DNA of 56,105 nucleotides from Candidatus Adlerbacteria bacterium (GTDB lineage Bacteria; Patescibacteriota; Minisyncoccia; Phycocordibacterales; SBAW01), in contig CAISEE010000001.1 in NCBI GenBank assembly GCA_903884345.1, positions 1 through 56,105 of the forward strand. The letters run 5' to 3'. This document shows, one piece after another, positions 15,308-15,625 of this stretch. Below the pieces are notes generated by a model. The model searched no databases. It saw nothing but the letters and a program-made list of their open reading frames with translations, and had not been told where the DNA came from. Positions within the stretch are counted from its first letter, which is position 1; every line of letters starts with the position of its first letter. Both the position numbers and the translations under genes were made by a program.

Positions 15308-15625
15308 CTAGCTGCCTTGGCATCCGCCGCCGCCCTCTGATCCGCCGCCGCCGCACTCACCTTGACTACCGCCGCCGCCCTCGCCGCAACCACCATCACC
15401 ACCACCTCCTCCACCATCATTATTACCGCCTTCGGCCGTGTACTCGGCTAAGGCTGTGGGTACGGAAAACAGGGAAGGCGAGAAGAACTCGGGCCCTTGG
15501 GGTTTCGCACGCATGCCGGCGTCCCTACCGTCGGAGAATCGGGCAACCGTCGAACCCACGAACACAATCGCGCCCAGTGAGAGCAGCGACATCATGCGCA
15601 ATGCAAACCGCATCAATCGTTTCAT
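15308..15625 (-). CDS. RiPP precursor peptide B (Gly/Cys/Ser/acidic core)
   Basis: 105 aa: MKRLMRFALRMMSLLSLGAIVFVGSTVARF...PQGPEFFSPSLFSVPTALAEY...GGNNDGGGGGGDGGCGEGGGGSQGECGGGGSEGGGGCQGS. Lies 58 nt downstream of YcaO-B. Confidence 0.7.
   Translation of the reverse strand: MKRLMRFALRMMSLLSLGAIVFVGSTVARFSDGRDAGMRAKPQGPEFFSPSLFSVPTALAEYTAEGGNNDGGGGGGDGGCGEGGGGSQGECGGGGSEGGGGCQGS

Follow-up and report, generated by a model that had tools for sequence, protein, structure and literature searches.

Two small genes on the minus strand of a contig from a Candidatus Adlerbacteria bacterium (assembly GCA_903884345.1, contig CAISEE010000001.1, positions 1 to 56,105; this whole stretch of 56,105 nucleotides is called the window below) encode paralogous peptides, precursors A and B, which adjoin genes for YcaO and SagB-type enzymes. 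Judged by their cores and their gene neighbours, these peptides are precursors of the linear azol(in)e-containing peptide (LAP) or thiazole/oxazole-modified microcin (TOMM) type, and their leaders begin with a segment that is closer in appearance to a Sec-type export signal than to a permanent membrane anchor. The explanation favoured here, with moderate confidence, is that a Sec-type export signal has been fused to the leader of a peptide synthesized ribosomally and modified post-translationally (RiPP), such that modification would take place in the cytoplasm and be followed by Sec export and by cleavage at a conserved Ala-x-Ala (AxA) junction. LAP clusters have been known in the candidate phyla radiation (CPR) since 2020; what appears to be new, with family-wide support, is a LAP precursor that carries a Sec-type signal within a three-part leader. 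A preliminary description of positions 15308-15625 had reported a membrane-like helix and a near-invariant block in both leaders. As an observation this is confirmed as a whole, and the interpretation attached to it is partly supported.

The two precursors

The precursor B gene (15308-15625, minus strand) is an ATG-initiated open reading frame (ORF) of 105 amino acids plus stop, as given by its translation and by public gene call P0001. The peptide starts with MKRLMRFALRMMSLLSLGAIVFVGSTVARF, continues into the block PQGPEFFSPSLFSVPTALAEY and ends in GGGGCQGS. Residues 1-28 (15542-15625, minus strand) resemble a Sec signal: an n-region, MKRLMRFALR, with four Lys/Arg and no Asp/Glu, is followed by the uncharged hydrophobic stretch MMSLLSLGAIVFVGSTVA, 18 residues long, as is its counterpart ITALFSLGVLVFVGSTVG in precursor A. 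The block itself comprises residues 42-62 (15440-15502, minus strand) and is recognized by its identity to the paralogue. Within it lies the proposed cleavage site A58-L59-A60|E61 (15443-15454, minus strand), the window's version of a family-wide A-x-A|D/E junction. The putative core, residues 61-105 (15311-15445, minus strand), has 25 Gly, 3 Cys, 3 Ser, 1 Thr and 7 Asp/Glu and is free of Lys and Arg.

Precursor A (10999-11307, minus strand; ATG at 11307, stop at 10999; public call P0002) has 102 amino acids plus stop and is built alike, with a signal-like part at residues 1-28 (11224-11307), the block at 11122-11184 and the core at 11002-11127, all on the minus strand. Its n-region has three Lys/Arg and no Asp/Glu, and its core holds 4 Cys, 6 Ser and 1 Thr. 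An identical protein is present on contigs of assembly GCA_903951795.1. Both cores are C-terminal and rich in Cys, Ser and Thr, as is expected of LAP precursors, and that of precursor B contains Gly-Cys and Gly-Ser dipeptides, which resemble the cores of the microcin B17 type. The window yielded no further candidate precursor.

Over residues 1-62 the two peptides can be aligned without a gap, and both carry PQGP(E/Q)FFSPSLFS(V/T)PTALAEY. The claim that this block is identical at 19 of 21 positions between diverged flanks holds: in the spacer before it, residues 31-41, just 1 of 11 positions is shared, and in residues 1-30 identity extends to 17 of 30. A codon-by-codon comparison is informative here, as 13 codons of the block differ synonymously and 12 codons of residues 1-30 show synonymous-only differences. 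Because residues have been kept while codons differ synonymously, the protein sequence, the hydrophobic segment included, is on this comparison under purifying selection, and the duplication that gave rise to A and B is an old one; their similarity does not reflect recent DNA identity.

A precursor family in Patescibacteria

Are the two peptides an isolated case? A sequence search with precursor B through 5.8 billion proteins found nothing beyond the two window peptides themselves, and there is no NCBIfam model for them; the family was therefore recovered by synteny. Homologues of the window's SagD-type cyclodehydratase, YcaO-A, with 30-49% identity occur in Patescibacterial metagenome-assembled genomes labelled in their records as Adlerbacteria, Kaiserbacteria, Paceibacterota, Sungiibacteriota and others, and the gene order YcaO, SagB, small ORF, ~370-amino-acid protein recurs among them. 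When the fetched loci were scanned for small ORFs with a Gly/Ser/Cys-rich tail, 40 candidates were obtained, and three further precursors have cores less rich in Gly. A second module, in which a homologue of the window's 299-amino-acid protein (p299) precedes a gene of the YcaO-B type, a small ORF and a gene for a transmembrane (TM) protein, carries the same peptide design in three loci (L080, L081 and L083). The total is 46 precursors from about 45 loci (40 YcaO-A loci, 3 YcaO-B/p299 loci and the window), a catalogue that comes from our own ORF heuristics, with the start codons of the relatives picked by eye; about 12 Patescibacterial loci gave no precursor, and in some of these the contig ends there.

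The 46 precursors have a common design: a Lys/Arg-rich start, a hydrophobic segment of ~19 residues, a polar spacer of 13-38 residues, the A-x-A|D/E junction and a Gly/Ser/Cys/acidic core. The cores have a median length of ~40 residues, with 27% Gly, 27% Cys+Ser+Thr and 16% Asp+Glu, and only four of the 46 contain Lys or Arg. The n-regions range from two to five Lys/Arg, with a family median of three, and zero Asp/Glu. The hydrophobic segment is the feature of most interest. Among 28 Patescibacterial candidates selected by tail composition and junction motif, with no criterion of hydrophobicity, every one has a strongly hydrophobic 15-mer (Kyte-Doolittle >= 1.86) upstream of the junction motif. 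Loss of the segment in homologues was thus not found; it is kept in 28 of 28 unbiased candidates and in 46 precursors in total. The non-CPR loci served as a negative control and yielded one credible LAP precursor, in a Bacillales locus (L071), the leader of which is hydrophilic (Kyte-Doolittle 15-mer score, KD15, -0.06).

Properties of the hydrophobic segment

The segment had been described as signal- or TM-like, and its predicted energetics bear this out. The Kyte-Doolittle 11-mer maxima of the two window precursors are 2.75 and 2.48. On the Hessa scale, in sums that ignore position effects, the best 19-mers come to +1.4 and +2.5 kcal/mol, with a family median of ~+1.05; real signal peptides in the window range from +0.9 to +3.2, and cytoplasmic N-termini, those of both YcaOs and SagB included, from +7 to +18. 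The segments are also less hydrophobic than the TM anchor encoded by the adjacent tetratricopeptide repeat (TPR) gene (median -1.41), in 29 of 37 pairs (Wilcoxon p = 3e-4). Charge is biased across the segment, +3.4 on the N-terminal side versus ~0 on the C-terminal side, which fits an N-in/C-out orientation. Family-wide the segment keeps its hydrophobicity but little of its sequence; among close relatives the h-region does show a conserved 'VF.[GS][ST]'. On reading the precursor sequences, no lipobox, twin-arginine or prepilin motif was seen.

Junction and spacer

The core follows directly upon the junction, which is the element conserved across the family. In 40 precursors Ala occupies P3 in 32, His P2 in 18, Asp P1' in 37 and Pro P3' in 23, giving a consensus AHADAP (A-H-A-D-[AVT]-P), of which the window has the version ALA|EY. 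The loose motif is present in 40 of 40 candidates picked without it, compared with 4.5 expected in shuffles, and the strict form A.AD[AVT]P in 17 candidates, compared with 0.013 expected. Upstream of the junction there is a weak Phi-F dyad (LF or IF), then Pro or Asn. The nearest relative (L003) reads ...PISLFSIPQAHA|DAP where the window reads ...SPSLFSVPTALA|EY, and the window block aligns to 'P.SLFS[IV]P.A.A[DE]' of this relative. The notion of a near-invariant block therefore stands between A and B, but across the family the conserved part lies in another register and consists of the weak Phi-F dyad, the Pro and the A-x-A|D/E junction.

It had also been suggested that FSPSL within the block represents an FxxxB recognition motif. 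This is not borne out: of the 40 spacers of the family, 7 contain F...[ILV], versus 4.9 +/- 2.0 in shuffled ones, and an enrichment of FxxxB was rejected on these numbers. The leaders also differ from the hydrophilic FxxxB-type leaders of streptolysin S-like LAPs in that they begin with a hydrophobic, signal-like segment.

Could AxA|D be merely the local consensus of signal peptidase? This was rejected, since Asp stands at P1' in just 2 of 42 ordinary AxA sites of these genomes, both of them in paralogous proteins of the window. These two are large secreted proteins of 835 and 453 amino acids (18964-21471 and 25158-26519, minus strand), with signal peptides ending A-K-A|DTFW and A-E-A|DTFW, and no other ordinary signal-like protein in the data set has an Asp after AxA.

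Export, anchoring and the alternatives

The gene neighbourhoods offer no dedicated route of export. Pfam scans of the rest of the window revealed no ABC (ATP-binding cassette), PCAT (peptidase-containing ABC transporter) or MFS (major facilitator superfamily) exporter, nor a leader peptidase; FtsE beside FtsX is the sole ABC ATPase there, and no ABC ATPase motif was found in ~50 related Patescibacterial loci (+/- 6 kb). The earlier remark that an exporter gene is absent thus extends from the window, with its FtsEX, to its relatives. No protease recurs in the related clusters. A dedicated family protease was considered and rejected, as a Trypsin_2-like gene was seen in just two loci and an S9 peptidase in a single Patescibacterial locus, with a weak match in one non-CPR locus.

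Since a signal-like segment is kept and no exporter is linked, Sec export would be the most economical reading. From the architecture and conservation of the peptides, the purifying selection on them, the enzyme families, the linked TPR gene and the lack of linked exporters and proteases, we infer insertion into the membrane, dependence on Sec, the order in which modification and export take place, the site of cleavage and the kind of protease. The leader would have three parts: a Sec-type targeting signal, a polar spacer whose weak Phi-F motif probably serves enzyme recognition, and the A-x-A|D/E junction. The soluble, cytoplasmic YcaO or YcaOs together with SagB would turn Cys and Ser of the core into azol(in)es before export; the signal would then direct insertion, N-in/C-out, by way of the general Sec/YidC machinery, and the modified tail, acidic and free of Lys/Arg, would cross the membrane. 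Cleavage at AxA|D/E, by an enzyme with a specificity like that of signal peptidase I or by another housekeeping protease, would release the product outside. The single-pass TPR membrane protein encoded downstream is a likely partner in handling, as a scaffold or in immunity. Such a pathway would need no dedicated pump or peptidase, and it would mirror that of the bufferins, which is described below.

Several findings weigh against this proposal. The conserved AxA lies 13-38 residues past the best hydrophobic 19-mer (median 22; 35-38 in the window), and canonical signal peptidase I sites are reportedly found about 3-9 residues after the hydrophobic segment (Jain, Rusch & Kendall 1994); the precursors do not have the short c-region with AxA a few residues after the h-region that marks a type I signal peptide. 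Nor is there a conserved small-residue site at the end of the h-segment, where the close relatives have G/A/A/G/N/N/H/T at -1; the sites that the window peptides offer there (TVA|R, TVG|R) are not conserved in relatives. Asp at P1' and Pro at P3' are specific to the precursor family, a preference that may point to a different protease or to some part in recognition by the enzymes. With an energy of <= 0, the segments of 18 of the 46 members are hydrophobic enough for a stable anchor. Finally, no Pfam or NCBIfam match in the window indicates an E1-like (SagC/McbB) partner or one of the Ocin-ThiF-like type with a RiPP recognition element (RRE), which leaves recognition of the substrate without an assigned partner.

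Some of these same findings would be accommodated if the segment were an uncleaved signal-anchor, with the precursor modified while tethered, possibly on the TPR scaffold, and its tail displayed on the surface or freed by an AHADAP-specific protease. The uncharged stretch of 18-21 residues, the energies at or below zero in the 18 members just mentioned, an AxA too distant from the helix for canonical signal peptidase I, the h-region motif kept among close relatives and a gene for a membrane-anchored TPR protein after 37 of 40 precursors all speak for such tethering, and membrane-embedded proteins with Ser/Gly/Cys-rich tails are proposed substrates of MNIO enzymes (PMC12452194). Yet the neighbouring true anchors on average exceed the segments in hydrophobicity, the two segments of the window (+1.4, +2.5) fall within the range of signal peptides, the universally conserved AxA junction suggests cleavage, and the positive-inside rule gives no clear topology for the TPR protein (71 Lys/Arg on the N side versus 63 on the C side). 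A permanent anchor is rather unlikely in our estimate, but it is the main rival; lasting anchorage and modification at the membrane had both been raised in the preliminary description. Much less probable is that the leader is soluble and its hydrophobic helix, buried in YcaO or a partner, serves enzyme recognition only, with export by an unlinked transporter. RiPP leaders often bind their enzymes through short hydrophobic or helical motifs, and the lack of an RRE protein calls for an unusual mode of recognition; but a Lys/Arg-rich start followed by ~19 uncharged residues is the canonical Sec/signal recognition particle (SRP) targeting signature and would be recognized as such in vivo, one design serves two YcaO types only 24% identical, hydrophobicity is kept where the segment's sequence is poorly conserved, and the typical LAP leader that came out of the same pipeline, that of the Bacillales locus, is hydrophilic (KD15 -0.06).

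Are the small ORFs substrates of YcaO at all? They might be ordinary secreted Gly-rich proteins, of immunity or the envelope for example, linked to the enzymes by chance, and some cores have few residues to modify (four of the 46 lack Cys, and that of L034 has one Ser and no Cys). The ORFs adjoin YcaO/SagB in 46 cases, however, and with two YcaO types; their cores have a median of 27% Cys+Ser+Thr and the Gly-Cys/Gly-Ser motifs typical of LAPs; and the window offers no other candidate. A chance linkage is improbable on these grounds, by our estimate a shade more so than the buried recognition helix. It is hardly credible that the hydrophobic stretch is untranslated and the true start lies downstream. 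Precursor B does have internal Met residues at 5, 11, 12 and 38, and the upstream sequence shows neither a clear sigma-70 promoter nor a clear Shine-Dalgarno sequence; but precursor A offers no Met/Val/Leu beyond the segment from which translation could start and still include the block, so that the segment must be translated, the synonymous/non-synonymous pattern speaks for selection at the protein level on residues 1-30, and 46 homologues keep an in-frame hydrophobic N-terminus despite a lack of DNA similarity.

The gene cluster

The cluster genes all lie on the minus strand of this Patescibacteria-like contig and are of the YcaO/SagB (LAP/TOMM) type. They follow one another as the 299-amino-acid protein, YcaO-B, precursor B, a 336-amino-acid TM protein, a small secreted protein, YcaO-A and SagB, then precursor A, a second small secreted protein and a paralogous 337-amino-acid TM protein. 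The earlier assignment of the two peptides as precursors of a YcaO cluster agrees with this content of two YcaOs and a SagB. YcaO-A (12117-13673, minus strand) is a SagD-type cyclodehydratase in an ORF of 518 amino acids, 494 as called (PF02624, E 2.3e-49; TIGR03604, E 7.2e-46). The best structural matches of its AlphaFold2 (AF2) model (pLDDT 91) are the YcaO domains of LynD, MusD, TruD and McbD, the last in structures 6gri/6gos; neither the model nor these matches assigned a fold to an N-terminal extension of ~110 amino acids. The SagB-type FMN dehydrogenase (11368-12117, minus strand, 249 amino acids) matches TIGR03605 at 132.7 bits against a cutoff of 78.4, and PF00881 at E 1.1e-22; a SagB is found in nearly all related loci. 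YcaO-B (15684-17078, minus strand, 464 amino acids; PF02624, E 5.6e-36; TIGR03604, E 6.2e-33) is 24% identical to YcaO-A. It ends 59 nt upstream of precursor B, and in L080, L081 and L083 its orthologues are flanked by a p299-like gene on one side and a precursor of this design on the other. Precursor A, in turn, has YcaO-A and SagB directly upstream of it. The N-termini of both YcaOs and of SagB are not hydrophobic.

The 299-amino-acid protein (17075-17974, minus strand), encoded by the partner gene of the YcaO-B type, was considered as an E1-like or RRE partner. Its fold speaks otherwise, and that assignment was rejected. There is no Pfam or NCBIfam match, and the AF2 model (pLDDT 96.5) is all-alpha, with weak Foldseek matches to (alpha/alpha)6 toroids (GH76, C3d, AprG). 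Among 1.84 billion representatives it has 34 relatives, in which D42, R45, S217, E224, R245, E268, D278 and H282 are among the conserved residues. It occurs only with the YcaO-B type: homologues are present in L078, L080, L081, L082 and L083, directly upstream of a YcaO-B-type gene in the four loci with a readable downstream gene. The protein may represent a new kind of YcaO partner or a tailoring enzyme.

The single-pass membrane TPR protein (14264-15274, minus strand; 336 amino acids from MKKTICI) is encoded 33 nt downstream of precursor B, and its paralogue, a TPR-like single-pass membrane protein of 337 amino acids with 52% identity, at 9316-10329 (minus strand). The linkage is general: 40 of 46 precursors have an ORF of ~230-450 amino acids within 125 nt downstream, and 37 of these 40 ORFs start with a TM helix. 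Members of this family differ widely in sequence (mean column identity 19%), and the family profile identifies TPR repeats (E 6.6e-28 to consensus TPR proteins), with a weak match to the TM-TPR protein LapB.

Relation to known systems

Microcin B17 is the obvious point of reference. Its precursor McbA has a short soluble helical leader that is read by the E1-like McbB, the product is exported by the ABC pump McbEF, and the leader is removed by TldD/E. The window cluster is similar to the McbA/McbBCD system in its Gly-rich core with Gly-Cys and Gly-Ser sites, in the pairing of a YcaO cyclodehydratase with an FMN dehydrogenase and in the match of the YcaO-A model to McbD; it differs in that no components of the McbB, McbEF or TldD/E type were found in the window and in that the leader begins with a Sec-like signal. 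The Sec-dependent class II bacteriocins, such as enterocin P and lactococcin 972, use a Sec signal peptide in place of a double-glycine leader and ABC exporter; they are unmodified, and their canonical signal peptide has the AxA directly after the h-region. The window precursors are likewise small peptides with a Sec-like signal, but would differ from these bacteriocins in modification and do differ in the position of AxA.

Sec signal peptides on bacterial RiPP precursors have been called 'highly unusual', with experimental proof only for the MNIO-modified bufferins, in which modification precedes export (PMC11626156, PMC12452194). Bufferins and oxazolins have an N-terminal Sec-type signal, Cys heterocycles that are formed in the cytoplasm, and general Sec export without a dedicated transporter (PMC11626156, PMC12452194); the likeness of the window precursors, as read from sequence, is in this export logic only. 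The chemistry is unrelated, MNIO plus DUF2063 there (PMC11626156, PMC12452194) and ATP-dependent YcaO plus SagB here, and Pfam scans of the window found neither MNIO (DUF692) nor DUF2063 domains. In bufferins, moreover, the signal peptide is cleaved right after the h-region and the core is folded, whereas the window family has 13-38 extra leader residues and a low-complexity core. The TIGR04222 proteins, which are proposed MNIO substrates, offer another parallel, with a membrane-embedded N-terminal part, an unstructured Ser/Gly/Cys-rich tail predicted outside and linkage to a modifying enzyme; unlike the precursors they have several TM segments, are 70-643 amino acids long, are MNIO-linked and have neither an AxA junction nor YcaO (PMC12452194).

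In the CPR itself, 110 LAP clusters in 93 genomes, 51 Parcubacteria included, have been reported (Sharrar et al. 2020, mBio, PMC7298704). As far as the accessible part of that report goes, these clusters resemble the present one in phylum-level group, in a YcaO beside a SagB-type nitroreductase and in a small adjoining Cys/Ser-rich precursor; the same part describes no signal- or TM-like leader, AxA|D junction, TPR membrane protein, YcaO/p299 module or lack of exporters, and its example cluster has a peptidase, which the window cluster does not (PMC7298704). No description of a signal-like leader on YcaO, azole or TOMM precursors, those of Patescibacteria included, was found in the literature searched.

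What would such a fusion of signal and leader mean? A second, unrelated chemistry, the ATP-dependent one of YcaO and SagB, would be coupled to general secretion, and this export logic would have evolved more than once. It would also account for the persistence in genome-reduced CPR bacteria of LAP clusters that have neither exporters nor leader peptidases. For genome mining a rule can be stated that would pick out such precursors by their design where sequence search misses them: Lys/Arg plus a hydrophobic segment, AxA-D-x-P and an acidic Gly/Ser/Cys tail, followed by a TM-TPR gene. How a soluble YcaO competes with Sec targeting for the same short peptide is a relevant question for further work. 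A broader picture, offered tentatively and with more doubt than conviction, is that Paceibacteria-type CPR bacteria make YcaO-modified azole peptides as type II membrane-inserted pre-pro-peptides that are handled by a dedicated single-pass TPR membrane protein and either displayed on the surface or released by enzymes of general secretion. These might constitute a lineage-wide system for envelope or host contact or for metal binding, not a diffusible antibiotic, with RRE-free leader recognition and a new alpha/alpha-toroid partner of YcaO.

Accessory genes and other features of the window

Two accessory genes recur with the cluster. A fusion of 552 amino acids (7092-8750, minus strand; NCBIfam matches) joins an orotate-phosphoribosyltransferase-like domain to a PQQ/BamB-like beta-propeller; it has no signal peptide and is found with 34-58% identity in 19 related YcaO loci (tblastn). 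Next to it, a TPR protein of 286 amino acids (6196-7056, minus strand; Pfam TPR) has counterparts in 23 related loci (tblastn). In some of the related loci (L005/L006 at 7284-7964, L007 at 7285-7965 and 14021-14713, also L008, L009, L052 and L053), but not in the window, the YcaO cluster comes with aspartyl/asparaginyl beta-hydroxylase-like genes (PF05118), and the products of these genes may provide extra tailoring of the Asp-rich cores.

Two identical, near-consensus promoter-like sites (TTGACA-16-TATACT, 11 of 12 matches; 14230-14257 and 10943-10970, minus strand) precede the two small secreted proteins, of 128 and 141 amino acids, that flank the precursor modules. This suggests that these are separately transcribed, duplicated accessory genes, and small secreted proteins are also found beside the clusters in L078, L080 and L082. 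At the precursors themselves, the hexamers TATAAT and TACAAT lie 8 nt upstream of the ATGs in the shared context CCGTATGAA; the idea of leaderless mRNAs was dropped, as the promoter scan showed no full sigma-70 site there.

The window's only protease related to the Sec pathway is a Peptidase_S49 (SppA-type signal peptide peptidase) at 38355-39266 (minus strand), 23 kb from the cluster. Farther along, the region 45282-55916 carries type I restriction-modification genes (HsdR, HsdS, HsdM) along with genes for a BRO-N protein, a serine recombinase and a DUF4238 protein. At 0.31-0.47, the third-position GC of several genes there is much below that of the rest of the window, and the region is probably a mobile island.

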